From the NCBI GenBank assembly GCA_973895155.1, contig OZ316892.1:15678861-15742860 (forward strand): a stretch of 64,000 nucleotides of DNA, in the 5' to 3' direction. The notes under the pieces are model-generated. The model had not been told where the DNA came from. It was given only the letters and a program-made list of their open reading frames with translations, and made no database searches. This document shows, one piece after another, positions 8,601 to 46,789 of the stretch. Origin of the DNA: Marsupella aquatica (Eukaryota > Plantae > Marchantiophyta). Positions within the stretch are counted from its first letter, which is position 1, and every line of letters begins with the position of its first letter. A program made the translations under genes and the position numbers.

Positions 8601-9588
8601 TGTGAGTGCATCCAAACTCATTTTTTTTAGTACCACGCCTTATTCTTCACATTTGCCATCCTAGTTTCAAAGATCTTGTAGCTAGCAGGATCGATGATCT
8701 TCTCATAGTAAGACAGATCATATTGGAGGATTTTCTTCACCCGGTCTGCATCCAAAATCCAAGAATTCTCCACAACACACTGCCCAAGCCTGGACCCGCA
8801 AAGGAAAAGGATATCAATATATTAAGCAATCACTTAGGGAACCTAAACCACTTGCACAAAAGTGAAACAAAGCTATAAAACTTACTTGTTGAGCTCATGC
8901 ATCGCCGACTCAATCTCAATGAACGAATCACATTTCCCCTTCAAAATGCGATATATCACCCGAGGATGATACTTTTTGTCATCAGGGAACTGCTTAGCAA
9001 CTATCATCCACGAATATAGACGATGGTTCCCATCAAAAACCAAAAACATCTTGTCTTTCAAGCACAAGAATTCTGGATTTTTGTCACATTTGGCTTCAAA
9101 CGCGACATTTTGCTAAACCCAAACATCGTCCCAAGTTGCTCGAATATCTTCGGTGACCAGAATCTCAGCACCTTCCGCATCACAGACGGAAACATAAACT
9201 TGGCCAACTTGTCAACGTATCCATCCGTCTTGAACTTGGAGACAAGATTGTCAATAGCTCTTGATTGCACCTGGAGCGACCTCACCAAGTCCATGTTCAT
9301 GACTTAACAAAGTGGAACCCTAGGAGGTTCTTGCGTGTCCCCCCTTTCGTTCAACCCAAACAAAAGAGAGTGACGAGCAAGCACCTTGGAGAACGCGTCC
9401 GGAATTTTGCTGCCTCCCATCAGAACACCGTGTGTCTTGGGACATGACTGCTCTTCTTGGTGTTTTTAGGCCTATGAAAAGAATTTGCCTCTCTGCTGTC
9501 GACCGAGTCACTTGCCTGCTTGAGTTTGTAGTCTGTAGAAGGAGGCGGAGAAAGAAGTTTGGGAGCGCGGTGAAGAAGAATGATCCAT
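5633..9588 (-). pseudogene. MULE-1 accessory gene: ParB/Srx-like domain plus beta-class N4C/N6A methyltransferase-like domain, multi-exon, disrupted
   Basis: VRSLQ..IDNL..KF...GY and VFDGNHRL (9020-9034) match the ParB N-terminal signature. TNPGDVVFYWTVGEGWSYFVGDYSGRHVIGLE matches the SAM-binding region. GT-AG introns at about 8790-8885, 7351-7475 and 6541-6648. Collinear with 47341-51506. Confidence 0.75.
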
Positions 9589-12500: not shown

Positions 12501-13437
12501 TTCCCGGTCAAGGCTCTATTACTGATCGAGATCATGTTTTCAAGATGAGCGTCAAAGGTCCGGGTTCTGGATTGGATATTCTTCAAAGAATGAGAAAAGG
12601 GGGTTCTCAGGAAGGATCATGGGTTAGTTTTGATGTTATGCATCGGATTACTACTGGCTGGCTGACATTTAGTGCGCACGTTTATGATCATAATATCCGT
12701 GCCCTGTGCACAATATTTACTTGTGAGCTAAAGTTTGAATGTTGTGAATCATTGTCTACGGCTTGGAGGTTGATGGTAAGTGTCGCATCCAAAAATGGTT
12801 TGCACGACATTACCATCCATGGTTTCATGGTAGATAATGCCACCGTAGGGTGGAATGCGGTTCAGAATATATTCTCCCAGGGTCTTCCTAATCCAGAAAA
12901 AGAAAGGTCTGATGCTTTTCATTTCTTCCAATCACTCCGGAGACATACCCGTGAAGGTATTTTGGAAAAAAATCACGATGAGCATTATGCTTTATGGGAC
13001 CATTTGAGGAACGCCTCCACATACGTTGAAGCTACAGAATTTCTTCAGAGATCAAGGAGTGGTGGCAATCCAGGAATTGTATTCCAGGGAAACTTCGCTA
13101 TCTGCAAGGATGGATTTCCTGGTGGGTCGTTTGATGGAGACAGTGGGGGAACTATATCAGGCTGGTATGGTCTTAATTCCAACTCAATTTTTCATGGTCG
13201 TCTCATCAAAATATTGCAAGCGATCTTCGCTAACATCGGTGGAATCCGTTACTTACGTTGATTTTGCTTATGTGTTTTGTTTCAGTCGGCGGACGCTCTG
13301 GAATCTGTCCACGCTTCCATGCATGCTTCCCAACCCAAAAAGAAAGTGACTCTAGTGGAGGCTTGCAAAGTTGACTCCAATCGTGCTGCCTTCCAAGTTG
13401 CTTGCTACATCGGATTTGAGTCCGGTGTGAGTAGAGG

Positions 13438-16400
13438 TGTGATGCCTAGACAGGAATCACTCGGCCGGTTAAGTGGGTAAAGCAGGAAGGCACCCTAGGA
13501 ACACCTTAGTATAGTGACAAAACAAGGAAAATATAAACAATTAGGGGCAACCATGGAACCCGGGCCGAGGCCGGAGGTAAGGCTGAGGGTGAAAACCCGA
13601 TTAGGGTTAGGGCGCGTTAAGCGTCGGCGGCTAGGAAGGATCAACGGGAAGAAGGACCGGCAAAGGAGAGGGGTAAGGAGCGCTTGCAGGAGATGGTGGC
13701 TCATTTGCGAGCACGAACTAGGCAGACGACTACGGGAGGCCAACTACTGTCAGCTGCTTAGGCAAGCACTCGGGGAGAGAGTAGATACCGACGATCAACC
13801 TAAGGAGGGTATGAGCAACGTCAATCAAGCGGCACATTTCTGGGGATGCCTGTTCGAACGGGCAACTGAGTACATCAAGACTTACGAGGACGAGGAATCA
13901 GAAAGGGCAGCTCGAGAACGGCAGGAGCTCGCTCGATTGTGGGAGCTGCAGAAGACGGCTTTCTTAGGAGGCGAACTCATCAAGGACGAGTTCCTGTGGA
14001 CGCCTACTTCCAATCAACTCGACGATCTTCTGTTTTGCAAAGACAGCGTCGTCGGCATCCGAGAGGCCATCAAGAACTGCAACGACATACACTGGGAATT
14101 AAAGGGTAGCACGGAAAGGTGGACCCAAGCAATGGTGCTAGGAGAAACCTCCACGGCAGCAGAGATGAAGAGGAAGGGAGCCGTCAACGATGAAGCCACC
14201 CCGGCAAAAAGAACGAGGTCGGCGGCACCAAAGAAGCCAGCCGAGCAGCAGAGCAGGAGGCAGGGAGAAGCCGAAGAGGAGGAGGTTGATCCCATCAAGG
14301 CCATTCCAACCAGGGATGACACCTGGAAGGGCTGGGCGGCAACCCTACCGGTGGAGGTGCAACTACATTTTGCACGGGAGGAGGATGCATGCTTTACGGC
14401 CATGCAGACCAAGAAGTACCAAGGCTTCATGGCCGGATCCGGCTTGGAGGCCTTTGTAAGATTACCATGGCTGAAGCCGGAGGTACCGGAGTCAGACCTA
14501 TTAGAATTCGTGGGGTCATGGGAACCCGAGACCAATTGCACGAGGATATATGGGAAGGATTTCTATCTTACTCCCAAGGTAATTGCCAAAGTGTTTGGCT
14601 TGCCGATAGGCAATAAGACCAAAGTTGATACCAGGAAGACCTTGCCTGACAAGGAGTTCCGGTCGTTCCCCGGGCCATCAACGAAGAATGGCTTCTTCCG
14701 GAACACCTGCACCAACCCGCACATAGGAGAGATGATCGACTTCTTGCGGGTGACCATGCATTGTAACTTGCCGAGGGCAGAGATCGGCAAGGCACAGGTC
14801 TATCTGGCAGAAAGGCCAGACCCAAGCCGGGACTACAACGGGTACCTCCTCAACCAATTGAAGAAGATCTTAAAGGAGGAGCAGCAGGTAATCGGCATGG
14901 GGAGCGTGTCGCGGCTTGGCTATCACATGCCGCTGTTGTGCCGGTATGCCAGAGGTCAGACTTTTGCCCCGGTACTTCCCCTGCAGGTAAGAGCACCCGA
15001 GGAAGCTCCAACGCCAAGGCCGTTGGCTGAGAAGCCTCAACCACCTGTTAGTCCTACGATCGAGCAGGTGTTTAGGCCCAGGAAGGAGGACTTGCCGATG
15101 CAGCAACCAGGCATGCAGAGTCTGCTGAAACTACTGGAGAAAGAAAAGAAATCGGCATCGGCAACAACAACGGCAACGGCAACAATGCAGGACACTACTA
15201 CAGAGGTAGGCCTACACCGGCTCACAAGAGAAAACCCCTTTGCTGGAGACAAGGAGAGAATCAGGCCGGAATCCAAGCCAGGTGTTCGAATGTACGTGGG
15301 AACCTCAAGCTCCGAATCTGAGGCAGAATTGCCTGAAGCTCCTACCGACGAAGAGGAGAGGGAGAAGCCGGACGTCCAAGAGGTAGAGGAGGCAGTGGAG
15401 GACTGCAGCCATGATAATTCCGGCTATGGGTCGGACCATCACGTTCCAGGAGTAAGGACCTGTGGCCGGTTTGTCCCCACACTTCCAAGGGTAGTGCGAG
15501 GGGACCCCAACCAGCAGAGTAGCCCTGAGTCTCCCCCACCAGATGTTGCTCCCCCGAGCTTCGATGGCATAAAACAGACAGTGCAGGAATTTCAGGAGCG
15601 AATCAAGCAGGAGGAGGAGGCCGCCCTGGCTAAGGAAAAGGATTTACCAGGAGGAGATTGGCCGGAGGACATCAGGCGGCTAGCCGAAAAAGGAAGCAAA
15701 CCTCTAGCCACGATTGAAGAGATCCGCAGGACGGCTTGGGAGCAGAGGCCACGATGGGCGATGCCGATCACTTCTACTTACTCCACCTACGCTAAGAATA
15801 GAGCCATGGAGTATGGTGAGATGTGTGGGGAACTTGCGCTCGGCATCTTTGGAGAGGAGTTGGAGGTAGGACCCTTTTTCCATAGGGAGCAGGAGGAGGC
15901 CAAAAACGAGCTGGAGGGGGCACGTAAGGACCTGGATGAAACCCAAGAGGAGTTGGAGGAAATCACGAGGAAGATGGAGAACCTACAGCGGCGGGCCGAC
16001 AACCAAACAGAGCGGCTGAAGAAACAAGCCGCAGTATTTAAATGCTTAGCTGCAGCAGGTCCATCTCCCGTTGGGACAAACCAGTTACCAGGGGTGGTAA
16101 TTGTCGAAGGACAAGCCGCGCCACCTGCACCAGTGCCGGAAGTAAGTGGGAAGGGGAAGGGACCAGCTGCCGAGCCACCAACGAAGAAGAAGCGGAAACC
16201 TTCAGGGTCAAGGAGTAATACGACTTCACAGGCCGTGGTGATCAAGGAGGTAGACCCAGCACCGACCCCAGACAGGGTCACGGCTAAGGATCCAACTACC
16301 CTAGGGGAAGGGGAGGCCAAAGCCGAGGGAGTGGCTGAAGCCGAAGCCGTGGGAGTGGCTGAGGCCGAAGCCGTGGGTATTGCCGAGGCCGGTGTCGAGG

Positions 16401-17464
16401 CTGAAGCCGAAGGTGGACCCAGTCAGGCCGAGGGAGAGTTGACTCGGTCAAGGGCAGGTAATCTGTCAGTAGGCGGGCCAACGGCAGTGGCTGAGGAGGA
16501 AGTGTTGGGGGCGTCCATTGAGGATCCACCACCGGTGTCGTGACGGTGCAAGGGCGCCGTTCCTTTTAGGGAGGGCGGACGTGGAGGGAGGAGGCGTGAG
16601 TGGGCAGGGCGGGCGCGGATCTCCACGTTTAGGATTAGGATTAGAACCAGGAGCGGCCCTGACACTTAGCTTAGTGGGATTGCGGTTCCACTGGTAGGAG
16701 CAACACTTGTGCTCCTGCCTTGCTGTACATAGGTAGATTCGGGCAAGTAGATTACTGTCAGGTAGATTAGGCTTACGCTGCAAAGAATGGCGGATCCACT
16801 ACCAGGATAAGTACCTGGGCAGCGGGGAGCTCAGGGCCTCTTCTTTAGCAAGTTTTTAGTTTGCACCAGCCGGGCTGGGATCAAGTAGTACGAGAAGCTC
16901 TCGGTTAGTCATACAGTGACCCTTGTGTATATTCATGTTTCCTCATGCCTAAGAGCTGAATAGAGTTGGCCTCACGGCTTAGTTCGCAGAACTTGTGTAT
17001 GAGATGTACTGTTTGTATGGCAAGTGCATGGTATGACTCAGTCAGAATGAGTCATTTTGCTATTTGTGTGTCGCATTAACTTGTGTGAAGAGTGCCCACA
17101 TCAACAGAAGGAAGGAAAGTAAGCAGAGGAGTGAGAGTTGGATGTGTCGAGCTGAGAGAGGTCTTAGCGGCTTAACCAAGCCTATTGGGGATCATTCCGG
17201 CGGCGGAATCCAAACATACCTAACAAGACGGAGGGGAAGACAGGGGAAGACAGGGGAAGGCCTATATTAGGCCGGCTACGTATCTCATGACCCGATGAAG
17301 GATCTGTCCAGTATATGTGTGTAAAATGTTAATAGTAGTAGTAGAAGGTTAGCAGCGTCCCATGCCGCTAAGCCGCGGAAACGGCCTCGCCAAGCACGAA
17401 ACCTACGGGAATCGGCTTGAGCTGGGGGGTTTCTTGGGTTTAGGGAGCCATGGGACGCACCACA
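13438..17464 (+). mobile_element. Giant gypsy LTR, family C, copy C1 (4027 bp)
   Basis: TGTGATGCC...CACCACA flanked by AGAGG (13433-13437, 17465-17469); near-identical to 21912-25937. Confidence 0.92.
13553..16543 (+). CDS. Intact LTR-encoded protein, short variant (996 aa from first ATG): PMD/Transposase_32-like domain plus coiled coil
   Basis: Uninterrupted ORF lying wholly inside LTR C1. LLEFVGSW..IYGKDFYLTPKVIAKVFGLP resembles plant-mobile-domain-type motifs (judged by eye). Confidence 0.8.
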   Translation: MEPGPRPEVRLRVKTRLGLGRVKRRRLGRINGKKDRQRRGVRSACRRWWLICEHELGRRLREANYCQLLRQALGERVDTDDQPKEGMSNVNQAAHFWGCLFERATEYIKTYEDEESERAARERQELARLWELQKTAFLGGELIKDEFLWTPTSNQLDDLLFCKDSVVGIREAIKNCNDIHWELKGSTERWTQAMVLGETSTAAEMKRKGAVNDEATPAKRTRSAAPKKPAEQQSRRQGEAEEEEVDPIKAIPTRDDTWKGWAATLPVEVQLHFAREEDACFTAMQTKKYQGFMAGSGLEAFVRLPWLKPEVPESDLLEFVGSWEPETNCTRIYGKDFYLTPKVIAKVFGLPIGNKTKVDTRKTLPDKEFRSFPGPSTKNGFFRNTCTNPHIGEMIDFLRVTMHCNLPRAEIGKAQVYLAERPDPSRDYNGYLLNQLKKILKEEQQVIGMGSVSRLGYHMPLLCRYARGQTFAPVLPLQVRAPEEAPTPRPLAEKPQPPVSPTIEQVFRPRKEDLPMQQPGMQSLLKLLEKEKKSASATTTATATMQDTTTEVGLHRLTRENPFAGDKERIRPESKPGVRMYVGTSSSESEAELPEAPTDEEEREKPDVQEVEEAVEDCSHDNSGYGSDHHVPGVRTCGRFVPTLPRVVRGDPNQQSSPESPPPDVAPPSFDGIKQTVQEFQERIKQEEEAALAKEKDLPGGDWPEDIRRLAEKGSKPLATIEEIRRTAWEQRPRWAMPITSTYSTYAKNRAMEYGEMCGELALGIFGEELEVGPFFHREQEEAKNELEGARKDLDETQEELEEITRKMENLQRRADNQTERLKKQAAVFKCLAAAGPSPVGTNQLPGVVIVEGQAAPPAPVPEVSGKGKGPAAEPPTKKKRKPSGSRSNTTSQAVVIKEVDPAPTPDRVTAKDPTTLGEGEAKAEGVAEAEAVGVAEAEAVGIAEAGVEAEAEGGPSQAEGELTRSRAGNLSVGGPTAVAEEEVLGASIEDPPPVS

Positions 17465-18688
17465 AGAGGTACAGGGCCTACAATTTTTGAGCTTGCATCT
17501 TGCCATGTAGATATGGTTGGTTCTGCTTCCACTCATGAGAAAGCAACCAATTATTTGATGGAAGCTAATGGGAAGTTTGATCTTCTACGGATTGGGCCAT
17601 TAAATGGTGATTTGCAAACAAAATCAACAAAGAGGAAGGGAATTGCGAGTGACAAAATCTCTAACCAGGACTCTTGTCATGTCGTCAGCCTAGGCCTTAA
17701 ACCGGGCTTCAACTTAGATAGGCACATCCTTCGTAAATATGAGGGTTTGGGTAGGGAGGGAAGCCCGGAATGCACCTAACTCACGTAAACTAGCGCTAAG
17801 TGCGTCTACTATTATTTATGGACCCTTCCTAGGTATGGTTTGTGTTCCGCCGCCGGAACGTACCTTAGTCGATAGCGAGATCGACCCCGGCTTACGGGCT
17901 TTTAAGCCTTCGTGCTGTCCGCCTTTGATCTGGATTCGATGATACGGTCACTCAACCTGGGCTCGCAACCACTTACCCGCAAGTTGCACCCCATGCATGG
18001 CTCAGGTAGCGCGTTGGGCCAAGCGTTGGCACCCATACACGAGATTCACACATATGCACACGCAAGCATATAATCTTGATTTACATGAAGGAAATAATGG
18101 GAAAGGATTTTACTACATAGGGGACATACACGTACACTTAGTTGACCCGAAAGCTCTCAAATGAACAGGTCCAAGGCTGAGGGTGTACACTACAACGGAG
18201 CCCGGCTCCGCACTCGCCCGACAAGCTTAGTCCTACCCCCTCCCCTTGGTACTCTTTCACTCGCAGAGATCGGGACTCCCCACACATACCGCGGATGCCC
18301 CACTCTAAGACTAACAAAAAACCCCCTGCCTCTATCAAGGGGTGCACTAAATACTAAGAGCCGAGGACCGGAGTGGTCTTGTGCCCGAAGATTTGCTAAC
18401 TAAGATCCTAACTAAGCTGGTTGTCAGGCCAGAAAATGGCTTGTCTTATTAGAAGATCCTAATCTACGCAGGCTGGATAGCATGGCAGTGCCGCTTTAAC
18501 TAGGGCAGCCTCTTGTCCCTATAGCCTCTTTTAGCTATTCATAACTTTATTTTAATCCTACTTTGTCGCTAATACCTGGCATGCTTGCCTAAGCCGCCTG
18601 AGTGGGAGCGACTATCCCGTTGCCTCCTGAGCCTGTCAGCTTCTTGCTTGATGAGTAGCTGGACCTGGTCCAGCAGAGATTCATTTTC
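17465..18688 (+). repeat. Duplicated flank: transposase fragment (17465-17674) plus the first 1014 bp of LTR B (17675-18688)
   Basis: Near-identical to 25938-27018 joined to 30008-30150. It holds the empty ATAAC site (18541-18545) of the copia-type insertion. Confidence 0.9.
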
Positions 18689-21600
18689 TGCAGGCGTTGT
18701 GGCAGAGCCGGCAGGGTTCACAACGCCATCGATCATCGGCAAGGAATTAAATACCAAGGGATCGGCATACAAGCCGATTACGAGGGCAGAACAAATTGAG
18801 GCCCTATTAGAAGCCGAGAGAGCACAGCGGCCTAACTCTCAGGAGCAAGAGGTGGATGAGATGGACAGACACGATCCAGAGCCAAGGCAGGAAAGGGAGC
18901 CGACCACTAATTCAAAACCAAATAGACCGGTAAGGGGACAATCTATGGACACCAAGGAAGGGACCGACTCGGCTAGTCCAGCCGAGATCCCAGTTTATGG
19001 AGGTATGAGATTAGAGAGACTGGAAGCCGAACTGGACCCGAATTTGAAGAAGCAGATTAATATGATCCAAGCACGGCAATATCGGAAGCTTGACTTAGGA
19101 GAGGGAAGAGAACTGAACTTAGGGAGAAACCTAGCACCTGAGCTCGAGAAAGAGATTAGTGACTTATTGATTGAATTTCAGGATGTGTTTGCATGGAGTC
19201 ACCAAGATCTAAAGGGAGTAGATCCAACACTAGGGGAACATCGAATTGATCTCATGTTAGGAGCCAAATCATTTCGACAACCAATTCGAAGGATGAACCC
19301 GAAGTATTCCCTGCTGGTCAAAACAGAAATCGACAAACTAGTGGAAGCTGGATTCATCACTCCAGTCCTGCATTCAGACTGGGTGTCTCCAATTGTGATA
19401 GTTCCCAAGAAAGCTGGACCCGATGGTAAAACCAAGATCCGGGTTTGTCAGGATTACAGGAAGCTGAATGAAGCAACATTAAAAGACCATTTTCCTTTAC
19501 CGTTTACTGATATGGTACTAGACATGGTAGCCAGTCATGAACTATATTCATTCATGGATGGATACTCTGGTTATAACCAAATCAGGATTCGGCAGGAAGA
19601 CCAAATCAAGACGGCCTTCATCACGGAATGGGGGATCTATGTCTTCAATCGTATGCCGTTTGGACTCTGCAATGCACCAGCTATGTTCCAACGATTAATG
19701 GTGAACATTTTTCATGATTACTTGAGAAAGTTCATGGAAATCTTCATTGATGACTTTGCAGTATTCGGGAGGGCATCGAAACATGCTAAATACCTCAGAA
19801 AAACCTTCATGAGATGTAGAGAGGTGGGTCTCAAGTTACACCCAGATAAATGTTTTTTTGCAGTAACCGAGGGGGTGCTACTAGGTCACAAGGTATCAAG
19901 GAAGGGCATTGAGATTGACAAAGGTAAGCTAGCAGTATGGCTAGATATCATGCAACCTAAGAACATAAAGGATGTAAGATCCTTCTTGGGATGCATTGGT
20001 TACTATCGCCGGTTCATCAAGGATTTTGCCAAGCTAGCTTTACCATTAACCAATATGCTCAAGGCAGGAGCAGACTTCGAACCCACGCCCGAACGAGTCA
20101 CAGCGGTGGTAGAATTGAAGCAGATGTTAGTAGAGGCCCCAGTCATGATAGCACCGGACTGGAACAAAGATTTTCATGTTTTTGTAGATGTCTCGGGCTT
20201 CTGTATTGGCTCAGTACTAAGTCAGTTGGATGAGAAAGGAAGGGACCATCCCATATACTTCGCAAGCCGTCAGCTTGCCGATGCCGAACGGAACTACTCT
20301 ACCACGGAAAGAGAAGCATTAGGAGTCATTTATTCTTGTAAAAAGTTTAGGCATTATTTACTAGGGTACAAGGTAATCTTTCATACTGATCATGAAAGTT
20401 TGAAGTACCTAGTCAATAAGCCGGACCTTACAGGCAGAGTAGCAAGATGGATTTTGCTATTACAGGAGTTTGACTATGAGCTGAGGATCAAGCCGGGAAA
20501 GTTACATGCCAATGCCGACTTCTTTTCAAGGATCACAGGTAAACCTGCCACGGATTGCATCGATGATCGATTCCCCGACGAGGAGCTATTTGTTGTGGAA
20601 ATAGCTGGTACATGGTACCCTGAGATTTTACAATTTCTCAGCACTTCCAGATTACAGCCAGGATTAAGCCGAGAGCAAGCCGCAGTCTTTGTGCGGAAGG
20701 TCAGACAGTATCAGTGCATTAAAGGCATACTGCACAAGCATGGAATCAACGGCACGATTCAAAGATGTTTGGAAAAGAGAGAGGTAAAACGAGTCCTACG
20801 GGCCATGCATGGAGAGGAGGCCGGAGGACATTTTGCCCCAGTAACCACGTCTAAGAAGATATTAAATGCCGGTTACTGGTGGCCCACCTTGCACAAAGAT
20901 GTCTATCAGTTTATCAAACAATGCGATCCTTGTCAACGAGCGGGAGGACCAAGGGCGTCCACCAGGCATCCACTGCACCCTATTCTACCTCTGGCACCAT
21001 TCGAGAAGTGGGGTATTGATTACATTGGACCTCTGAAACCACTGACCCACCCTCGACGGAACAAGTACATAATCCTGGCTACGGATTATGCAACTAAATG
21101 GGTAGAGGCCAGACCAACAACGAAGGATGATGCAATTACTACGGCTAGATTCATGTATGAGCAGATCTTCACCAGGTATGGAGCACCCTTAGAATTAGTT
21201 AGTGATAGAGGAACCCATTTTTTGAATTATATAATTAGTCGTTTAAATGAGCAGTATTTAGTTAAACATAGGCCTACTACTCCCTACCATCCAAAGGCAA
21301 ACGGGTTGACAGAACGAGCAAACGGAATTATAGGAAAGATATTGAACAAGACAGTAGCTCAGAACAAACTCGATTGGGATGATAAATTGTTTGCTGCTGT
21401 TTTTGCTTACAATCTTGCCTATAAATCCACTACCGATCATACACCCTTCTTCTTAACCTTTGGACAAGAAGCCCTGGTACCCATGCAACTTGAGATACCG
21501 ACATTTCAAGTTACAATTGAGGAAAGAGCCTCAGCGGAGGAGAGCCTAAAGGAGCGAGAATATAGGTTAGAAGCTTTAGAGGAAGCAAGAATGATTTCAG

Positions 21601-21923
21601 CCGAGAGAGTAGAATATAGACAGAATATCATGAAGCAGCAGTATGATAAAAGGTTAAAAGTAGTTAGTATTCATACCGGTGATCTTGTGCTACTTTATGA
21701 CAGTAGGTATAGTAGGTTTCCAGGAAAGCTTTACACTCACTGGTTAGGACCCTTTAGAGTAACCATGATGTTCCCCAATGGCTCCGTACAATTGGCCAAC
21801 ATTACGGGAGAGGTATATCCAGTTCGCATCCATTATGACCGCCTCAAGAAATACTATATGGACGAAGATGAAGTTGTTCGCGAGGACGCTTCACAATTAA
21901 GTGGGGAGCTATGTGATGCCTAG
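18689..21923 (+). CDS. pol: Ty3/gypsy pol, 5'-truncated (RT, RNase H, integrase), non-chromovirus type
   Basis: KDHFPLPF, DGYSGYNQI, MPFGLCNAP, FIDD; RNase H DVS..E..TDH; integrase H..H..C..C, WGID, SDRG, ERAN, WLGPF. No chromodomain. The stop codon lies in the first 12 nt of LTR C2. Gag and protease are absent. Confidence 0.95.
21899..21911 (+). other. Polypurine tract of the family C element
   Basis: AAGTGGGGAGCTA directly precedes the TG of LTR C2. Confidence 0.7.
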
Positions 21924-24900
21924 ACAGGAATCACTCGGCCGGTTAAGTGGGTAAAGCAGGAAGGCACCCTAGGAACACCTTAGTATAGTGACAAAACAAG
22001 GAAAATATAAACAATTAGGGGCAACCATGGAACCCGGGCCGAGGCCGGAGGTAAGGCTGAGGGTGAAAACCCGATTAGGGTTAGGGCGCGTTAAGCGTCG
22101 GCGGCTAGGAAGGATCAACGGGAAGAAGGACCGGCAAAGGAGAGGGGTAAGGAGCGCTTGCAGGAGATGGTGGCTCATTTGCGAGCACGAACTAGGCAGA
22201 CGACTATGGGAGGCCAACTACTGTCAACTGCTTAGGCAAGCACTCGGGGAGAGAGTAGATACCGACGATCAACCTAAGGAGGGTATGAGCAACGTCAATC
22301 AAGCGGCACATTTCTGGGGATGCCTGTTCGAACGGGCAACTGAGTACATCAAGACTTACGAGGACGAGGAATCAGAAAGGGCAGCTCGAGAACGGCAGGA
22401 GCTCGCTCGATTGTGGGAGCTGCAGAAGACGGCTTTCTTAGGAGGCAAACTCATCAAGGACGAGTTCCTGTGGACGCCTACTTCCAATCAACTCGACGAT
22501 CTTCTGTTTTGTAAAGATAGCGTCGTCGGCATCCGAGAGGCCATCAAGAACTGCAACGACATACACTGGGAATTAAAGGGTAGCACGGAAAGGTGGACCC
22601 AGGCAACGGTGCTAGGAGAAACCTCCACGGCAGCAGAGATGAAGAGGAAGGGAGCCGTCAACGATGAAGCCACCCCGGCAAAAAGAACGAGGTCGGCGGC
22701 ACCAAAGAAGCCAGCCGAGCAGCAGAGCAGGAGGCAGGGAGAAGCCGAAGAGGAGGAGGTCGATCCCATCAAGGCCATTCCAACCAGGGATGACACCTGG
22801 AAGGGCTGGGCGGCAACCCTACCGGTGGAGGTGCAACTACATTTTGCACGGGAGGAGGATGCATGCTTTACGGCCATGCAGACCAAGAAGTACCAAGGCT
22901 TCATGGCCGGATCCGGCTTGGAGGCCTTTGTAAGATTACCATGGCTGAAGCCGGAGGTACCGGAGTCAGACCTATTAGAATTCGTGGGGTCATGGGAACC
23001 CGAGACCAATTGCACGAGGATATATGGGAAGGATTTCTATCTTACTCCCAAGGTAATTGCCAAAGTGTTTGGCTTGCCGATAGGCAATAAGACCAAAGTT
23101 GATACCAGGAAGACCTTGCCTGACAAGGAGTTCCGGTCGTTCCCCGGGCCATCAACGAAGAATGGCTTCTTCCGGAACACCTGCACCAACCCGCACATAG
23201 GAGAGATGATCGACTTCTTGCGGGTGACCATGCATTGTAACTTGCCGAGGGCAGAGATCGGCAAGGCACAGGTCTATCTGGCAGAAAGGCCAGACCCAAG
23301 TCGGGACTACAACGGGTACCTCCTCAACCAATTGAAGAAGATCTTAAAGGAGGAGCAGCAGGTAATCGGCATGGGGAGCGTGTCGCGGCTTGGCTATCAC
23401 ATGCCGCTGTTGTGCCGGTATGCCAGAGGTCAGACTTTTGCCCCAGTACTTCCCCTGCAGGTAAGGGCACCCGAGGAAGCTCCAACGCCGAGGCCGTTGG
23501 CTGAGAAGCCTCAACCACCTGTTAGTCCTACGATCGAGCAGGTGTTTAGGCCCAGGAAGGAGGACTTGCCGATGCAGCAACCAGGCATGCAGAGTCTGCT
23601 GAAACTACTGGAGAAAGAAAAGAAATCGGCATCGGCAACAACAACGGCAATGGCAACAATGCAGGACACTACTACAGAGGTAGGCCTACACCGGCTCACA
23701 AGAGAAAACCCCTTTGCTGGAGACAAGGAGAGAATCAGGCCGGAATCCAAGCCAGGTGTTCGAATGTACGTGGGAACCTCAAGCTCCGAATCTGAGGCAG
23801 AATTGCCTGAAGCTCCTACCGACGAAGAGGAGAGGGAGAAGCCGGACGTCCAAGAGGTAGAGGAGGCAGTGGAGGACTGCAGCCATGATAATTCCGGCTA
23901 TGGGTCGGACCATCACGTTCCAGGAGTAAGGACCTGTGGCCGGTTTGTTCCCACACTTCCAAGGGTAGTGCGAGGGGACCCCAACCAGCAGAGTAGCCCT
24001 GAGTCTCCCCCACCAGATGTTGCTCCCCCGAGCTTCGATGGCATAAAACAGACAGTGCAGGAATTTCAAGAGCGAATCAAGCAGGAGGAGGAGGCCGCCC
24101 TGGCTAAGGAAAAGGATTTACCAGGAGGAGATTGGCCGGAGGACATCAGGCGGCTAGCCGAAAAGGAAGCAAACCTCTAGCCACGATTGAAGAGATCCGC
24201 AGGACGGCTTGGGAGCAGAGGCCACGATGGGCGATGCCGATCACTTCTACTTACTCCACCTACGCTAAGAATAGAGCCATGGAGTATGGTGAGATGTGTG
24301 GGGAACTTGCGCTCGGCATCTTTGGAGAGGAGTTGGAGGTAGGACCCTTTTTCCACAGGGAGCAGGAGGAGGCCAAAAACGAGCTGGAGGGGGCACGTAA
24401 GGACCTGGATGAAACCCAAGAGGAGTTGGAGGAAATCACGAGGAAGATGGAGAACCTACAGCGGCGGGCCGACAACCAAACAGAGCGGCTGAAGAAACAA
24501 GCCGCAGTATTTAAATGCTTAGCTGCAGCAGGTCCATCTCCCGTTGGGACAAACCAGTTACCAGGGGTGGTAATTGTCGAAGGACAAGCCGCGCCACCTG
24601 CACCAGTGCCGGAAGTAAGTGGGAAGGGGAAGGGACCAGCTGCCGAGCCACCAACGAAGAAGAAGCGGAAACCTTCAGGGTCAAGGAGTAATACGACTTC
24701 ACAGGCCGTGGTGATCAAGGAGGTAGACCCAGCACCGACCCCAGACAGGGTCACGGCTAAGGATCCAACTACCCTAGGGGAAGGGGAGGCCGAAGCCGAG
24801 GGAGTGGCTGAAGCCGAAGCCGTGGGAGTGGCTGAGGCCGAAGCCGTGGGTATTGCCGAGGCCGGTGTCGAGGCTGAAGCCGAAGGTGGACCCAGTCAGG

Positions 24901-25937
24901 CCGAGGGAGAGTTGACTCGGTCAAGGGCAGGTAATCTGTCAGTAGGCGGGCCAACGGCAGTGGCTGAGGAGGAAGTGTTGGGGGCGTCCATTGAGGATCC
25001 ACCACCGGTGTCGTGACGGTGCAAGGGCGCCGTTCCTTTTAGGGAGGGCGGACGTGGAGGGAGGAGGCGTGAGTGGGCAGGGCGGGCGCGGATCTCCACG
25101 TTTAGGATTAGGATTAGAACCAGGAGCGGCCCTGACACTTAGCTTAGTGGGATTGCGGTTCCACTGGTAGGAGCAACACTTGTGCTCCTGCCTTGCTGTA
25201 CATAGGTAGATTCGGGCAAGTAGATTACTGTCAGGTAGATTAGGCTTACGCTGCAAAGAATGGCGGATCCACTACCAGGATAAGTACCTGGGCAGCGGGG
25301 AGCTCAGGGCCTCTTCTTTAGCAAGTTTTTAGTTTGCACCAGCCGGGCTGGGATCAAGTAGTACGAGAAGCTCTCGGTTAGTCATACAGTGACCCTTGTG
25401 TATATTCATGTTTCCTCATGCCTAAGAGCTGAATAGAGTTGGCCTCACGGCTTAGTTCGCAGAACTTGTGTATGAGATGTACTGTTTGTATGGCAAGTGC
25501 ATGGTATGACTCAGTCAGAATGAGTCATTTTGCTATTTGTGTGTCGCATTAACTTGTGTGAAGAGTGCCCACATCAACAGAAGGAAGGAAAGTAAGCAGA
25601 GGAGTGAGAGTTGGATGTGTCGAGCTGAGAGAGGTCTTAGCGGCTTAACCAAGCCTATTGGGGATCATTCCGGCGGCGGAATCCAAACATACCTAACAAG
25701 ACGGAGGGGAAGACAGGGGAAGACAGGGGAAGGCCTATATTAGGCCGGCTACGTATCTCATGACCCGATGAAGGATCTGTCCAGTATATGTGTGTAAAAT
25801 GTTAATAGTAGTAGTAGAAGGTTAGCAGCGTCCCATGCCGCTAAGCCGCGGAAACGGCCTCGCCAAGCACGAAACCTACGGGAATCGGCTTGAGCTGGGG
25901 GGTTTCTTGGGTTTAGGGAGCCATGGGACGCACCACA
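21912..25937 (+). mobile_element. Giant gypsy LTR, copy C2 (3' LTR, 4026 bp)
   Basis: Follows integrase and the PPT; followed by TSD AGAGG (25938-25942). Confidence 0.92.
22027..25016 (+). pseudogene. LTR-encoded protein, short variant, with one frameshift
   Basis: Matches 13553-16543 apart from SNPs and a 1-nt loss in the A-run near 24161-24164. Confidence 0.85.
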
Positions 25938-27018
25938 AGAGGTACAGGGCCTACAATTTTTGAGCTTGCATCTTGCCATGTAGATATGGTTGGTTCTGCT
26001 TCCACTCATGAGAAAGCAACCAATTATTTGATGGAAGCTAATGGGAAGTTTGATCTTCTACGGATTGGGCCATTAAATGGTGATTTGCAAACAAAATCAA
26101 CAAAGAGGAAGGGAATTGCGAGTGACAAAATCTCTAACCAGGACTCTTGTCATGTCGTCAGCCTAGGCCTTAAACCGGGCTTCAACTTAGATAGGCACAT
26201 CCTTCGTAAATATGAGGGTTTGGGTAGGGAGGGAAGCCCGGAATGCACCTAACTCACGTAAACTAGCGCTAAGTGCGTCTACTATTATTTATGGACCCTT
26301 CCTAGGTATGGTTTGTGTTCCGCCGCCGGAACGTACCTTAGTCGATAGCGAGATCGACCCCGGCTTACGGGCTTTTAAGCCTTCGTGCTGTCCGCCTTTG
26401 ATCTGGATTCGATGATACGGTCACTCAACCTGGGCTCGCAACCACTTACCCGCAAGTTGCACCCCATGCATGGCTCAGGTAGCGCGTTGGGCCAAGCGTT
26501 GGCACCCATACACGAGATTCACACATATGCACACGCAAGCATATAATCTTGATTTACATGAAGGAAATAATGGGAAAGGATTTTACTACATAGGGGACAT
26601 ACACGTACACTTAGTTGACCCGAAAGCTCTCAAATGAACAGGTCCAAGGCTGAGGGTGTACACTACAACGGAGCCCGGCTCCGCACTCGCCCGACAAGCT
26701 TAGTCCTACCCCCTCCCCTTGGTACTCTTTCACTCGCAGAGATCGGGACTCCCCACACATACCGCGGATGCCCCACTCTAAGACTAACAAAAAACCCCCT
26801 GCCTCTATCAAGGGGTGCACTAAATACTAAGAGCCGAGGACCGGAGTGGTCTTGTGCCCGAAGATTTGCTAACTAAGATCCTAACTAAGCTGGTTGTCAG
26901 GCCAGAAAATGGCTTGTCTTATTAGAAGATCCTAATCTACGCAGGCTGGATAGCATGGCAGTGCCGCTTTAACTAGGGCAGCCTCTTGTCCCTATAGCCT
27001 CTTTTAGCTATTCATAAC

Positions 27019-30002
27019 TGTTGTGGGAGAAATGAGACAAAGAGTTGGTTCCATCTTTACTCTTGGTAGAATATGTACATGTGGCTACAGCCTAAGTAGT
27101 TAGGGTAGTTACATAGGTAGTTATCCCAAAGGTAGACTTAACTCAAGTATGAGTTACAACACTCCCCCTTTGTAACATTGGGGTTGAAATGTTACAATCA
27201 AGAGTCTACTTTGGGTATATTCAGTGGTATACAATAGGTTTTGTTTATGTCTAGCCTATTTTATAAATGGTGTAGTCATCTCAAGTCTACTATAAATGAA
27301 TGTCAAGCTTCTCCTAATAGATGTCTTATAATTCATGTTGTATGGTAAAGTGTAAGTGGGGGATGTAACCTCATTAAAACCTCCCCTACTTTCTTTGTGG
27401 GAGGAAAGAGTATTACCATCCCCATGGGTGTAACATAATTGGGTTTAAGCATATAGTGTATGTGTAATTTCTACAAAGTCTCTTAAGGTGCTTGTCAGCA
27501 CTATAGGCTTGTTGAAGATCCTCCTTGGTTGATTGTTTCTCGTGTCTCCTTCCAATCGGGAAATGGAGACTCCTTGATGGTCACAGATTACATGCCATGA
27601 CAAAGCAAAGTATTAGTACAAAATGAAGATGATATGGTGTAATCCATGGCTTTGGAATTGGATTGGGTGTCCAATCCTAGATTTGGTGTGGGCATAACCT
27701 ATTTGAACCATATCACGTACCATATCCATAACATAGGGTTATCATATTGGGGTATGGCGCACCATCTCTTATGGTGCCTTACCATGCCATGTCTCACCTT
27801 ATGGTACCTTATGACCTGGTACTGTACCTCATATTATCATATGGTACTTTAATATCCAGTATACCTCATCAAGTATTGGTAAGTGATTGTGTTAACATCA
27901 TGTTCAATCATTTATAAAAATTCCTTAGATTTCATGATTTGCCATATGCATGGAATAAAGTTCCATTTTTAGGTATTCATTGGTGCGAAAGGCACTTGTG
28001 CAATAGGCACATCCCATGGGTTACATTGCTTGATGTCAAGTCTTACTTGAGGTCTCCCCCTCAATTTGTCATTTACTTCCATGTGCAGTACGCACTCATT
28101 GGCTTCCATGTGCAGTAGGCACGGAGCTGAACTTTTAAGTGCCGTAGGCAGCTTTTAAATGCAGTAGGCACGTTGGGAAAAACAATTCTCCCCCTGAATT
28201 TGTGAATGGCAATTCTTATATGGTAATCTTTCCAATAGATATCTTTCATTTTAATGCCATTTCGTCCCCGTTCTTAGTATGTGTGTTTCCCTGGTTCAGT
28301 GCACATTGTTCTTTGTATACGCAAATCTATTTGATGGGTTTTGCAATTAAGGAGGGTTTGCACTTAGCGGTATGTTCTCGACGTTTTCTTGACGTTTCAG
28401 CATTTTTGTTGCGAGATTTGTTCTTTGCTGCGCGCGTTCCCTTCGTGCTCTTATCCTCTTTTCTCCAAGCTTCTCTTGGTTCGTGCTCCCAATGGTCAAC
28501 TCGTAAGCTCATAACACCAATGCCCCTACCCCTGGTCGTGGATTGTTCCATCTTATCCATGCATACTGCCAATCTCACGAGAACTGTTGTTTACCAAAAC
28601 TGGCATTCTGTGTCCTTCTGTGCTATAGGTGCCGTAACTTTGGGACTCCCATTGGTCATCGCTATCCTCCTTACTTTCCTCATCCTTGTGTTTGCCTTTG
28701 ATAACGAGGAAGAAGAAATCGAAGGCACAAAAAATGCCTAAGGGAGAGAACTTTCCGCGGCGCGACAGAGTGTCCGAGTCCCCTCTTCTCTTCTCCACTT
28801 TGTTTTCCTCGTACTCGGGCGACATCTCCTGAGCAGCCGAGGCCTTTATCCGCGGCTTACCGTAATGTAGTTGCATGACACAATTCACCGCATTCCTTGC
28901 ATTGCTATCTTTCAACGTAGCAGACCTCCGGACAATTGTAGGAGTTTCCAGTGGCTTCGCTCTCAATTCAATGTGCTTGCATAGTTTTCTTGGTCACAGT
29001 TTTCGGTAAGAAGAATGAGAAATCAATCCAATTAACTTCATCAACTCCAGGAACTCACAAACAGATTGGTAGTACCGGTGGAGAAAGAGTAAGAGAACGT
29101 AGTGAAACGGACTGGACCAGGACTATTGACGCATGTGTGAACTAATGTGGCGCAGGCCAGTTCAGAATGCAAAGCAGGACTACGATGAAAATTCATTCGC
29201 GGATAACAATGAAAGAATCACTGTGTGACTTTGGGAACTAAGACCCTAAGCGGGGATAGCATTGCCTTTCCCGCAGTCCTCATTGCACGGCAGGAATGAA
29301 GAGACACAACAGGAATTCCGCAGGGACCATGATATCTTCGTAATCCTTGCCACTGTGCAGAATTAACCTAGGAATTTGATAACTTCCGAGGCAATAGGTC
29401 GCTTCAAAACTGAAATATCGATGAGGCATCATCGCAATTCTGCACTTACAGTTGACAGAGACACCAAGATCGAGGGAATCCATTGCTCAAAAAATTTGTT
29501 AAAAATGAGAAGAAGACATCCAATAGCAACCATGAAACTTAGGACGAGCGGGATCCCAACGTGCATAGCCCAAGCCAACAACAAACGATGCGGACGCCAT
29601 TTGCTCACAATACATTCCACTTTCCCTTCACACAATTGGCCGCATTCAAGCTAACATCAAATGCCATCTTCGTCCACATTCCGCCTCAATTCAGAGTGCA
29701 AAGCGAGCTGCAGCGCTTCAAGCAGTTCTCGCAGAAAAAAACTAAAAAAACTTTGGCACATTCAAATCACGTCTTCAGGGCTCTCCCTCCTTTCTTTGTC
29801 TTAGGTTGAATCAGTCATGGCCTAAAAATTCAGCCAGTCTTAGGCTCGTGCTGATAACGTGTTGTGGGAGAAATGAGACAAAGAGTTGGTTCCATCTTTA
29901 CTCTTGGTAGAATATGTACATGTGGCTACAGCCTAAGTAGTTAGGGTAGTTACATAGGTAGTTATCCCAAAGGTAGACTTAACTCAAGTATGAGTTACAA
30001 CA
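27019..30002 (-). mobile_element. Non-autonomous copia-type (Bianca-like) LTR element, 2984 bp
   Basis: Identical 143-bp LTRs (27019-27161, 29860-30002), TSD ATAAC (27014-27018, 30003-30007), minus-strand PPT AAAGGGGGAG (27162-27171) and PBS at 29847-29859. No recognisable gag or pol. Confidence 0.92.
29847..29859 (-). other. Primer-binding site complementary to the tRNA-Ile anticodon arm (half-tRNA priming)
   Basis: Minus strand CGTTATCAGCACG abuts the 5' LTR. Plus strand CGTGCTGATAACG matches the tRNA-Ile arm (as I recall it) with inosine read as G. Confidence 0.75.
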
Positions 30003-31206
30003 ATAACTTTATTTTAATCCTACTTTGTTGCTAATACCTGGCATGCTTGCCTAAGCCGCCTGAGTGGGAGCGACTATCCCGTTGCCTCCTGAGCCTGTCA
30101 GCTTCTTGCTTGATGAGTAGCTGGACCTGGTCCAGCAGAGATTCATTTTCCCGCTTTGCCGCATCCACCTCTTTTGCGGCCTCCTGACATGCCTCCTCCA
30201 GTTGCTGGGCATCGCTCGTCAGCTTATCCACCAACTGGGCCTGCTTCGTGGCTTCTCCTTGAAGCCGCGCCACCTCTGTCTTCAGGGTGTCAATCTTGGC
30301 TGTGTCCCGCTGATACCGAGAGTCAGCTTCCTCCAGATCCTTCTGCCAAATGACAGTTTGTCCCTTCAAACCATTGATCTTGGTCCGGAGCCGTGCAATC
30401 TTGGCATCCTTTTCGAGCCCGGCTTGTTCTGCTAAGGCTGCCCGGGCCCTGGCCTCGACAACTTGATCCTCTGTGGCCGCTACCTGAGGCCGCAGTTGCT
30501 GGAGTTCAGCCTCCAGGGTTGCCACTCAGCCCTTTAGGTAGGCAGACTCAACCCGGTATCGCTCTATTCTCTACGCTGTCTCCGCCTGTGCATGTCCTGC
30601 CTTTACAGCCGCAACCAACTCCTGGTTGAAGAAGTAGGCCACCTTCCGGGCCATGTACTCTCCGGTGTCTTGTGAGATCTGTTGAGAGAAATCTCCCAAC
30701 AGCCCGTTCAAAAACGTGCCCGACGCAAAGAGTTTCGGATGGTCTAGACTATGTCCATCTGGATTCGGGCACGGGCAGACTCCAACCCATGCGGGAGTAG
30801 GAGTGGAAACATCCAGCCCTTGAGGTAAGTTGCTCGAAGGGGCTGGTTCCACTGGAGCAGGGCGGGTCTCTTGCACAACCACAGGAGGTGGCAGAATCTC
30901 CTTGGCTACCGTGGTATCGGGTTTGGGTATGGCTTCATCCAGCCCGGCTTTGATTGTGTTAACCCAATTGATCGCGTCTAAGGTCGGGATAACGTCCATA
31001 GGTATGCTTGGCAGGGCGGCAGCGGCGGTTTGCAGGGCCGGGGTAGCAAGGCTTGTAGTTGCCAGACTTCGGGCCTTGGGCTGCAGTCGCCTCACTTGGG
31101 CTGGAAACACCCACTTTGACGGGGTTAGCTCAGGCTCGTTGATACGTGGGAGGTTGCGGCGGTCGAAATGAGTGTACCACTCGATGATGATTTCGATGTG
31201 GCTAGC

Positions 31207-34200
31207 TGTGATGCCTAGACAGGAATCACTCGGCCAGTTAAGTGGGTAAAGCAGGAAGGCACCCTAGGAACACCTTAGTATAGGGACAAAACAAGGAAAA
31301 TATAAACCATTAGGGGCAACCATGGAACCCGGGCCGAGGCCGGAGGTAAGGACGCTGAGGGTGAAAACTCGATTAGGGTTAGGGCGCGTTAAGCGTCGGC
31401 GGCTAGGAAGGATCAACAGGAAGAAGGACCGGCAGAGGAGAGGGGTAAGGAGCGCTTGCAGGAGATGGTGGCTCATTTGCGAGCACGAACTAGGCAGACG
31501 ACTACGGGAGGCCAACTACTGTCAGCTGCTTAGGCAAGCACTCGGGGAGAGAGTAGATACCGACGATCGACCTAAGGAGGGTATGAGCAACGTCAATCAA
31601 GCGGCACATTTCTGGGGATGCCTGTTCGAACGGGCAACTGAGTACATCAAGACTTACGAGGACGAGGAATCAGAAAGGGCAGCTCGAGAACGGCAGGAGC
31701 TCGCTCGATTGTGGAAGCTGCAGAAGACGGCTTTCTTAGGAGGCGAACTCATCAAGGACGAGTTCCTGTGGACGCCTACCTCCAATCAACTCGACGATCT
31801 TCTGTTTTGTAAAGATAGCGTCGTCGGCATCCGAGAGGCCATCAAGAACTGCAATGACATACACTGGGAATTAAAGGGTAGCACGGAAAGGTGGACCCAG
31901 GCAACGGTGCTAGGAGAAACCTCCACAGCAGCAGAGATGAAGAGGAAGGGAGCCGTCAACGATGAAGCCACCCCGGCAAAAAGAACGAGGTTGGCGGCAC
32001 CAAAGAAGCCAGCCGAGCAGCAGAGCAGGAGGCAGGGAGAAGCCGAAGAGGAGGAGGTCGATCCCATCAAGGCCATTCCAACCAGGGATGACACCTGGAA
32101 GGGCTGGGCGGCAACCCTACCGGTGGAGGTGCAACTACATTTTGCACGGGAGGAGGATGCATGCTTTACGGCCATGCAGACCAAGAAGTACCAAGGCTTC
32201 ATGGCCGGATCCGGCTTAGAGGCCTTTGTAAGATTACCATGGCTGAAGCCGGAGGTACCGGAGTCAGACCTATTAGAATTCGTGGGGTCATGGGAACCCG
32301 AGACCAATTGCACGAGGATATATGGGAAGGATTTCTATCTTACTCCCAAGGTAATTGCCAAAGTGTTTGGCTTGCCGATAGGCAATAAGACCAAAGTTGA
32401 TACCAGGAAGACCTTGCCTGACAAGGAGTTCCGGTCGTTCCCCGGGCCATCAACGAAGAATGGCTTCTTCCGGAACACCTGCACCAACCCGCACATAGGA
32501 GAGATGATCGACTTCTTGCGGGTGACCATGCATTGTAACTTGCCGAGGGCAGAGATCGGCAAGGCACAGGTCTATCTGGCAGAAAGGCCAGACCCAAGCC
32601 GGGACTACAACGGGTACCTCCTCAACCAATTGAAGAAGATCTTAAAGGAGGAGCAGCAGGTAATCGGCATGGGGAGCGTGTCGCGGCTTGGCTATCACAT
32701 GCCGCTGTTGTGCCGGTATGCCAGAGGTCAGACTTTTGCCCCAGTACTTCCCCTGCAGGTAAGGGCACCCGAGGAAGCTCCAACGCCGAGGCCGTTGGCT
32801 GAGAAGCCTCAACCACCTGTTAGCCCTACGATCGAGCAGGTGTTTAGGCCCAGGAAGGAGGACTTGCCGATGCAGCAACCAGGCATGCAGAGTCTGCTGA
32901 AACTACTGGAGAAAGAAAAGAAATCGGCATCGGCAACAATGCAGGACACTACTACAGAGGTAGGCCTACACCGGCTCACAAGAGAAAACCCCTTTGCTGG
33001 AGACAAGGAGAGAATCAGGCCGAAATCCAAGCCAGGTGTTCGAATGTATGTGGGAATCTCAAGCTCCGAATCTGAGGCAGAATTGCCTGAAGCTCCTACC
33101 GACGAAGAGGAGAGGGAGAAGCCGGACGTCCAAGAAGTAGAGTCCGAGGCAATGGAGGACTGCAGCCATGATAATTCCGGCTATGGGTCGGACCATCACG
33201 TTCCAGGAGTAAGGACTTGTGGCCGGTTTGTCCCCACACTTCCAAGGGTAGTGCGAGGGGACCCTAACCAGCAGAGTAGCCCTGAGTCTCCCCCACCAGA
33301 TGTTGCTCCCCCGAGCTTCGACGGCATAAAACAGACGGTGCAGGAATTTCAGGAGCGAATCAGGCAGGAAGAGGAGGCAGCCCTGGCTAGGGAAAAGGAT
33401 TTACCAGGAGGAGATTGGCCGGAGGACATCAGGCGGCTAGCCAAAAAAGGAAGCAAACCTCTAGCCACGATTGAAGAGATCCGCAAGACGGCTTGGGAGC
33501 AGAGGCCGCGATGGGCGATGCCGATCACTTCTACTTACTCCACCTACGCTAAGAATAGAGCCATGGAGTATGGTGAGATGTGTGGGGAACTTGCGCTCGG
33601 CATCTTTGGAGAGGAGTTGGAGGTAGGACCCTTTTTCCATAGGGAGCAGTTGGAGAAGCACCAATTAGAAGAAGCGGTGGCTTTAGAGAGAAGCAAGAAG
33701 GACGAGGTCATTCGGCGGCTTAGGAGGATGGAAGCCGAGATTGAAGATCTAAGGGCGGCCAAGAAAGCCCAAGATGAACTACGGATTAAACGGCATGAGC
33801 TGAACATCATGCAGGGGCAGTTGGACACCGCGCAGGCTGATAATCAGAATATCAAGGATAAACTGACTCAGACGCAGGGAGAGTTGGCCGACACGATCAA
33901 AGAGAGGGAGAAGTGGAAGCAAGAGCTGAAGAATACAGAGGAGGCCCACATAACAGCCAACAGCCGGGCCATGGCGGAGACCCAAAGAAAGGAATGGGCG
34001 TTGAAGGGGGAGCTCGAGAAAATCCGCGGAGCCCTTGAGCAGAAGGAGGCCGAGTTAGGGAAATCCTATCAAGGGATTATGGCGCTGCAGCAGGAGCTTG
34101 CGTCCCTGACGGCCAGCTTCAAGGCCGACCTAAGGGAGAAGGACGAGATGCTCGATCAGACTTATGCCAAGATGAACCAGATGGAGTCTGTCATCATTGC

Positions 34201-46724: not shown

Positions 46725-46789
46725 GAGGCTTTTCACGATGACAGCAAACAGCAATCACATGGAGGCTTTTCACGATGACAGCAAACAGC
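46716..46789 (+). repeat. 37-bp tandem duplication covering the TSD and left TIR tip
   Basis: AATCACATGGAGGCTTTTCACGATGACAGCAAACAGC twice. Confidence 0.9.

Follow-up and report, generated by a model that had tools for sequence, protein, structure and literature searches.

Available reviews and surveys agree in placing the extra open reading frames (ORFs) of plant Ty3/gypsy retrotransposons, including those of the Athila type, in the internal region of the element (PMC7264820, PMC6317226, PMC11963269, PMC11728184, PMC7197481, PMC1142308, PMC12885004). Athila elements carry a sense extra ORF on their 3' side (ATHILA ORF-1, PF03078, or Transposase_32, PF20167; PMC6317226, PMC11728184, PMC7197481). 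Here we report on a stretch of 64,000 nucleotides from the liverwort Marsupella aquatica (contig OZ316892.1 of assembly GCA_973895155.1, positions 15,678,861 to 15,742,860; hereafter the window), in which a long ORF lies inside the long terminal repeat (LTR) of a gypsy element, designated family C. Sequence comparisons confirmed a real gene, maintained by selection, in the LTRs of two families in the window and of distant relatives.

LTRs of up to about 5 kb are known (PMC6317226). Diaspora of soybean, a member of the Athila lineage, resembles the present element in its unusually long LTRs and in a polypurine tract (PPT) 128 bp after pol, but is reported to have lost the extra ORF, and the accessible description mentions no ORF in its LTR (PMC1142308). 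Phygy is short, lacks an extra ORF and has an NCGN target preference (PMC6317226), whereas family C has a long ORF and the target-site duplications (TSDs) AGAGG, CTAGC and GTGAC. A literature search, mostly of open-access main texts, did not find a whole gene in the LTR of a plant retrotransposon. A parallel in arrangement is sag/naf of mouse mammary tumour virus (MMTV), which is located in U3 and driven by a promoter of its own (PMC9412291). There, too, the whole ORF lies within the LTR, as does a promoter for it (in family C a candidate one), but MMTV is a retrovirus and its protein is unrelated to that of family C by all searches run. For the protein, the closest described systems are VANC, which binds short dense motifs and strips methylation from its own family (PMC5735166), and the PMD of the host proteins MAIN/MAIL1, which VANC resembles (bioRxiv 2024.09.27.615353, PMC13547354). 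MAIN/MAIL1 oppose Polycomb (bioRxiv 2024.09.27.615353, 2024.04.02.587720, PMC13547354). VANC and the Athila domain have both been modelled as coiled-coil oligomers (PMC13547354), and gypsy elements carry PMD-A, the ancestry of which is open (PMC5418596).

The repeat and the gene within it

Family C is present in the window in four copies (C1 to C4, Table 1) of 4.0-4.7 kb, which share the ends TGTGATGCC...GCACCACA of the TG...CA type. The unit can be identified as an LTR, belonging to a Ty3/gypsy retrotransposon of the non-chromovirus group, because three of the copies are solo units flanked by 5-bp TSDs, a PPT precedes the remaining copy, C2, and the stop codon of pol lies inside C2. The latter copy begins three bases after the PPT AAGTGGGGAG, directly 3' of the integrase, and the pol stop codon is found 12 bases within it; C2 itself is without a TSD and shares its right flank with C1. 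The features by which Ty3/gypsy LTRs are recognised, namely TG...CA ends, a PPT before the LTR and a TSD of 4-5 bp, are all present. A Pfam scan recovered reverse transcriptase, RNase H and integrase in the order of Ty3/gypsy elements and found in the window pol neither a chromodomain nor a second RNase H, in agreement with Athila; there is a single RNase H region, and the additional archaeal-type RNase H of Tat/Ogre/Retand elements is not present. The original prediction had recognised the repeat as an LTR from the solo copies and from the position of C2, and had placed its start at 21899; positions 21899-21911 are the PPT and a spacer, and the LTR starts at 21912. Short LTRs with an internal ORF, which that prediction had named as fatal to its view, are not what the TSDs, the PPT and the pol stop codon inside the unit indicate for the window.

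Alternatively, the unit could be an independent mobile cassette lying beside pol, either a DNA transposon or an element with tiny LTRs, or the join between pol and C2 could be an artefact of assembly. The ends of the unit form an imperfect inverted repeat of 8 bp, the tandem repeat includes a flank of 1082 bp that is 100% identical, and the side of the element that would bear the primer binding site (PBS) is not present in the window, all of which would suit such an explanation. However, C2 lacks a TSD and stands three bases past a PPT whose upstream motif (motif A) also precedes the LTRs of relatives, it contributes the stop codon of pol, no transposase family was matched in Pfam, and the identical order at the join recurs in independent metagenome contigs. 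Short LTRs hidden at the two ends of the unit were likewise rejected, as no terminal direct repeats were found there. Altogether we consider a cassette or an artefact very improbable. C1 was ruled out as the 5' LTR of this pol, since it is followed by its own TSD and host DNA.

In family C and in a second family, H, the LTR has the same layout, consisting of 370-470 bp with a TATA box, the ORF and a tail of about 900 bp. It had been predicted that the ORF starts about 115 bp into the LTR and is intact in C1 and C3, and indeed the first ATG is at LTR position 116 and the frame is open for 996 aa in C1 and 1206 aa in C3. The start codon is probably M87, because the ORFs of both H copies and of three database relatives begin at its level; from there the ORF measures 910 aa (C1) and 1119 aa (C3). 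The sag ORF of MMTV, with about 320 aa, is much shorter. C3 has 612 bp of extra coiled-coil coding sequence compared with C1 and C2. The copy that the prediction had actually delimited, C2, does not hold an intact gene, as a 1-bp deletion disrupts its frame.

Substitution patterns indicate that the LTR ORF is under purifying selection. The ratio of nonsynonymous to synonymous substitutions (dN/dS; Nei-Gojobori method with stop-bearing codons dropped, the ratio being underestimated under transition bias) is 0.32 between C3 and C1 (confidence interval 0.23-0.46), 0.33 between C3 and C2 and 0.25 between C3 and C4. For H2 and H1 it is 0.19 for both segments and 0.13 (0.08-0.20) for the core, at a dS of about 1. 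The excess at third positions is significant in every one of six comparisons, with p between 2e-3 and 3e-14 (between 3e-7 and 3e-14 where C3 is compared with C1 and in the H comparisons), and indels between C subfamilies within the ORF preserve the frame. Neutral evolution of the ORF, the other outcome that would have spoken against the original prediction, therefore finds no support in the proposed comparison of copies, with ratios of 0.13-0.33.

The two H copies are TG...CA units of about 4 kb with 65-75% identity to each other, and their ORFs are homologous to the core of the C ORF (tblastn E 5e-10 and 2e-9). The ORF of H2 is a single frame with seven stops, that of H1 contains frameshifts. 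Family H is classed as an LTR by its anatomy, because the window holds no H pol. H2 is split by C3 and by an element with LTRs of about 145 bp and the TSD ATAAC (27020-30002). Solo LTRs of the family C kind, with a TATA box and a 3-kb ORF, resemble ordinary host genes, and such elements can escape LTR finders that set a limit on length.

Relatives and the position of the gene within the LTR

The best 80 of 565 metagenome stretches related by integrase alignment (L-numbered loci) provide the wider context. A profile built without these loci matched 7 of the 80 downstream of the integrase at a whole-sequence E<0.05; once sequences from the loci had been added, 13 matched at E<1e-10, a result that is circular for the 11 included ones. 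The alignments from the window side and from the loci matched each other in hhalign (98%, E 6e-14), and no close relatives of the ORF were found in metagenome contigs.

The homologous ORF of these relatives can stand before or behind the PPT that defines the LTR. In L002, L009 and L010 the PPT with motif A follows the ORF, another purine tract follows the integrase, and the ORF is thus internal as in Athila; the LTR of L002 measures about 1.0 kb. The PPT also lies behind the domain in L049 and L078, in which the domain is fused in frame with pol behind the integrase (in L049, 765-9743, gag-pol and the extra-ORF domain form one frame of 2992 aa; L078, 1-4713, is fused likewise). By contrast, motif A, PPT and TG directly follow the integrase in L003, L005, L008 and L011, and the ORF begins 220-770 bp later; L004 and L018 have the same integrase-PPT junction on contigs that end early. 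In L008 the start after the PPT and the end before the PBS form an inverted repeat over 12 of 13 bases, with the ORF beginning inside, and in L003 the LTR start and the end before the PBS match in this way over 9 of 9 bases. A site matching the PBS of the Athila type, probably for tRNA-Asp, is present in L002, L003 and L008; the window itself has no PBS. Six other loci (L016, L017, L034, L039, L040, L048) have a long sense ORF of 850-1170 aa just behind the pol stop, in L039 and L040 in the frame of pol after a single stop codon; these ORFs are weakly similar to the core profile.

Given both states among the relatives, we infer that plus-strand priming moved to a PPT upstream of an Athila-type extra ORF, which would have drawn the ORF into the LTR and led to the state in the window. 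The ORF with its own promoter would thereby have become part of U3, and the last 0.9 kb or so of the LTR would represent the short LTR of earlier times, in which the main promoter lies. Athila elements have two PPTs. In the C copies a purine tract directly after the ORF stop sits where relatives have their PPT and may be a vestige of the ancestral one, a comparison made post hoc; it resembles the second tract of L002 and L007 (6 and 9 of 1000 shuffles did at least as well), with the motif likewise chosen post hoc. An LTR boundary that crosses a gene, as seen among the relatives, offers a simple route to very long LTRs. A single origin of the LTR-ORF state was unsupported in the first tree, contradicted by FastTree (23 sequences) and recovered by IQ-TREE (12 of those, bootstrap 83).

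U3 is the likeliest place of the ORF, because in relatives the homologous ORF sits upstream of a short LTR. The original prediction also favoured U3, for a reason that does not hold: the TATA-like word situated some 200 bp before the 3' end is CCTATATTAGG in the copies C1 and C2 but CCTAGATTAGG in C3 and C4, and as a promoter mark is missing from the latter two. The TATA upstream of the ORF, in family C 21 bases before the first ATG and in H1 and H2 alike as TATAAAAG at LTR position ~361, is the sole one conserved between C, H1 and H2. With regard to a U3-encoded gene of the MMTV sag type, the TATA before the ORF is conserved and a 3' promoter word is seen in relatives only. It is possible to read this differently, with the ORF in R or U5 and the 5' TATA as sole promoter, so that a short LTR-terminated transcript would be the ORF mRNA and read-through would yield the genomic RNA. 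Such a reading agrees with the conservation of the 5' TATA and with the missing 3' word in C3/C4. [quoted passage not shown] TGTA words, considered as a poly(A) signal, are moreover not significantly enriched in the LTR over shuffles. We therefore regard a location in R or U5 as unlikely and retain U3.

The closest named relatives of pol are from Riccia, Calypogeia and Marchantia (44-63% identity), and trees, calculated without REXdb references, group pol with liverwort and metagenome elements, apart from angiosperm matches; no pol relatives were found in viral contigs. Family C is similar to Athila as a non-chromovirus gypsy element without second RNase H and with a sense ORF downstream of pol, the domain of which is related by a transitive profile match and which is internal in three of the loci. 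It differs in that its PPT precedes the ORF, which consequently would be present in both LTRs, and is present in solo LTRs, instead of between pol and PPT; Athila ORF2, on the other hand, is described as internal and derived from spliced RNA. The window protein also falls below the Pfam cut-offs.

The protein and its possible function

The protein would consist of an N-terminal domain, a VANC/PMD-like core, a disordered linker, a long coiled coil and basic patches resembling nuclear localisation signals. The N-terminal domains of C and H align from the same start with weak homology (hhalign 19%, E 0.001), and an Atlas search with this domain gave no usable match. Residues ~750-1000 of C3 contain hardly any proline and much E, K, Q, R, L and A, as in a coiled coil, and basic patches occur at residues 220 and 1077. 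For the ORF, Atlas gave Transposase_32 (0.88) and ATHILA (0.86) as leads. The ORF of L009 matches Transposase_32 over nearly the whole profile (E 3e-5, below cut-off), and of 26 aligned homologues 3 matched PF20167, the best with E 3.4e-5 and 24 bits, where the cut-off is 45. Among the 21 relatives of the ORF are at least two Calypogeia proteins (10 of 21 looked up). A word-indexed protein search with the full-length C3 protein and the core alignment found nothing, and a PDB sequence profile search nothing meaningful.

The predicted fold of the core resembles that of VANC21, a DNA-binding protein with anti-silencing activity from the Arabidopsis element VANDAL21 (PDB 9LNJ/9LNK; PMC5735166, PMC13547354). 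The model from 26 sequences reached pLDDT 88.8 and pTM 0.86; an earlier one, built on 17 sequences, had been of low quality (pLDDT 49.5), and no match came from fold searches with it. Among 48,161 PDB representative chains, VANC21 on DNA was the only match above Z 2.0 (Z 8.1, root-mean-square deviation 4.0-4.1, 195 of 214 residues; next Z 2.0), and Foldseek likewise ranked DNA-bound VANC21 first (E 0.36, TM 0.47; next 0.18). A library of viral structures gave no match at E<=0.001, the best being an unnamed entry at E 0.05. Together with the transitive link to Transposase_32, this unique structural match lends model-based support to the guess of a PMD-like, anti-silencing protein in the original prediction, the link to PMD being via the VANC21 fold only. 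Besides the predicted core fold, the family C protein shares with VANC21 a coiled-coil region, here a presumed one, for oligomerisation and the status of a transposon-encoded accessory protein. However, VANC comes from a dicot Mutator-like DNA transposon and the present protein from a gypsy LTR, the identity is 9-13%, a dense target motif was not found in family C, and the likeness rests on the predicted fold. PMD proteins are structurally allied to VANC, and PMD-A is borne by gypsy elements, but their descriptions come from angiosperms, while in the present case liverwort proteins are the nearest named relatives, and the accessible texts do not describe PMD-A inside an LTR (PMC5418596, bioRxiv 2024.09.27.615353).

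Anti-silencing is the best-supported function for the protein, with roughly even chances of being right, judged from the domain links, the modelled VANC21 fold and the known action of VANC. The TATA preceding the ORF would drive its transcription, in either LTR of an element as well as in solo LTRs, and the protein would oligomerise, bind the element's own DNA and counter host silencing. Even solo LTRs left after deletion of the element would then likely keep a gene for resisting silencing. A different job, such as activation of LTR transcription, targeting of integration, nuclear import or scaffolding of particles, is less probable but deserves serious consideration. The fusion to integrase in L049 and L078 would fit an integration complex, the long coiled coil and the weak motif enrichment in family C are compatible with other roles, and the functions of plant extra ORFs are described as not known (PMC7264820, PMC11963269). 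Against this stand the sole solved structural relative, which is a sequence-specific anti-silencer bound to DNA, and the dense private words in two LTR-ORF relatives. The LTRs of L008 (1-1394, 7374-8030) and L011 are saturated with a short near-palindromic word, ATCCGGA occurring 26 times in 2 kb of L008; private 7-mers number 26 copies in L008 and 7 in L011, counts that 0 and 1 of 100 shuffles equalled, as expected, by analogy, of target sites of a sequence-specific protein. In the C and H LTRs only TTAG is in excess (18-22 against ~8 expected, 0 of 300 shuffles).

Taking the parts together, we hold it reasonably probable that a gypsy LTR acquired, by a shift of the PPT, a selected gene with a VANC21-like predicted core, which lies in U3 and serves anti-silencing. 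Several observations weigh against this. No full-length element is present in the window, nor were a 5' LTR, PBS and gag found in one element; none of the loci has both long LTRs whole, and in L011, close to the end of the contig, a purine tract with TG some 830 bp beyond the ORF may be a downstream PPT. A conserved TATA near the 3' end of the C and H LTRs was not found. The window ORF had no Pfam matches to PMD (PF10536), Transposase_32, ATHILA or DUF1985 besides coiled-coil noise, and the VANC21 match is weak in identity and in its Foldseek values. The same fold serves the host silencing proteins MAIN/MAIL1, so that likeness to VANC21 leaves the function unfixed. No strongly repeated private 6-7-mer was found in the non-coding LTR of family C, although VANC needs dense motifs. 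Finally, the ORF is intact in two of six LTR copies (C1, C3) and broken in C2, C4, H1 and H2. The claim that every solo LTR keeps the gene consequently applies at insertion and not afterwards, and maintenance of solo-LTR genes at the level of the host was rejected; selection would act on replicating master copies, and inserted copies would decay.

A bolder version, in which the LTR is a self-contained anti-silencing cassette of promoter, VANC-like protein that binds DNA sequence-specifically and its target sites, and VANC, PMD and Athila ORF-1 form one superfamily, appears rather doubtful. If it were true, recombination between LTRs, the host's main deletion route, would leave solo LTRs that still de-silence the family in trans, and the superfamily would already have served the gypsy elements of the first land plants, which would argue for an origin from retrotransposons. 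The function of plant gypsy extra ORFs being an open question, the VANC21-like model offers a concrete idea, open to testing, of what proteins of the Athila ORF-1/Transposase_32 family do, and is relevant to a possible retrotransposon origin of PMD.

Local history and other features of the window

The segment 13438-18546 is duplicated at 21912-27019 with 99.6% identity. All 18 differences between C1 and C2 fall within LTR positions 296-2882, with none in the 1082-bp flank. The simplest history would be a single insertion at AGAGG and a tandem duplication with its breakpoint in pol, after which the first copy was reduced to a solo LTR. C1 and C2 are mosaic, with 97-98% identity to C3/C4 at both ends and about 80% at LTR positions ~2450-3150; this stretch adjoins the in-frame difference of 612 bp, and the pattern suggests that a further subfamily took part in recombination.

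Table 1. Positions of family C, family H and associated features in the window
Feature	Position	Strand	Remarks
H1, solo LTR-like unit	611-4578	-	TSD AGGTT; decayed homologous ORF
C1, solo LTR	13438-17464	+	TSD AGAGG; ORF 13553(13811)-16543 intact
pol (RT-RNaseH-INT)	18651-21923	+	5'-truncated at junction 18688/18689; stop codon inside LTR
LTR-defining PPT (21899-21908) with upstream motif A	21875-21911	+	motif also before LTR in L002, L009, L018
C2, 3' LTR, non-chromovirus Ty3/gypsy	21912-25937	+	4026 bp; after pol and PPT; ends as in the three solo copies with TSDs
TATAAA, candidate ORF promoter	22006-22011	+	LTR position 95; also in C1 and C3
LTR ORF in C2, from M87	22285-25016	+	first ATG 22027; 1-bp deletion near 24160 breaks frame
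Core domain, ~214 aa, Transposase_32/Athila-ORF1-related, VANC21-like predicted fold	22795-23436	+	modelled from C1 copy, 14321-14962
Purine tract after ORF stop, candidate vestige of ancestral PPT	25029-25050	+	in 4 of 4 C copies; not seen in H1/H2
Short block near LTR 3' end, DNA conserved between C and H	25672-25694	+	
H2, solo LTR-like unit, ~3.99 kb	26148-37772	-	three pieces: 35861-37772, 30003-31206, 26148-27019; TSD ACTCT
C3, solo LTR	31207-35860	+	TSD CTAGC; ORF 31322(31583)-34942 intact
C4, solo LTR	53718-58378	-	TSD GTGAC; two premature stops and 1-bp insertion upstream of likely start

C1 and C4 are both inserted beside related, decayed ORF regions (11500-13261 and 58546-60309; 66% DNA identity over 635 bp, no Pfam match), which look like remnants of DNA transposons. 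A cluster of ORF pieces on the reverse strand at 47742-51212, with a related piece at 8956-9148, includes an N6/N4 DNA methylase domain (PF01555, E 1e-7) and is possibly a mobile methylase cassette; its upstream piece has a DGNH motif without Pfam match, presumably recalling ParB-like domains. LINE-like remnants with zinc knuckle, endonuclease and reverse transcriptase-like pieces are found at 42765-46900 and 62825-64000.

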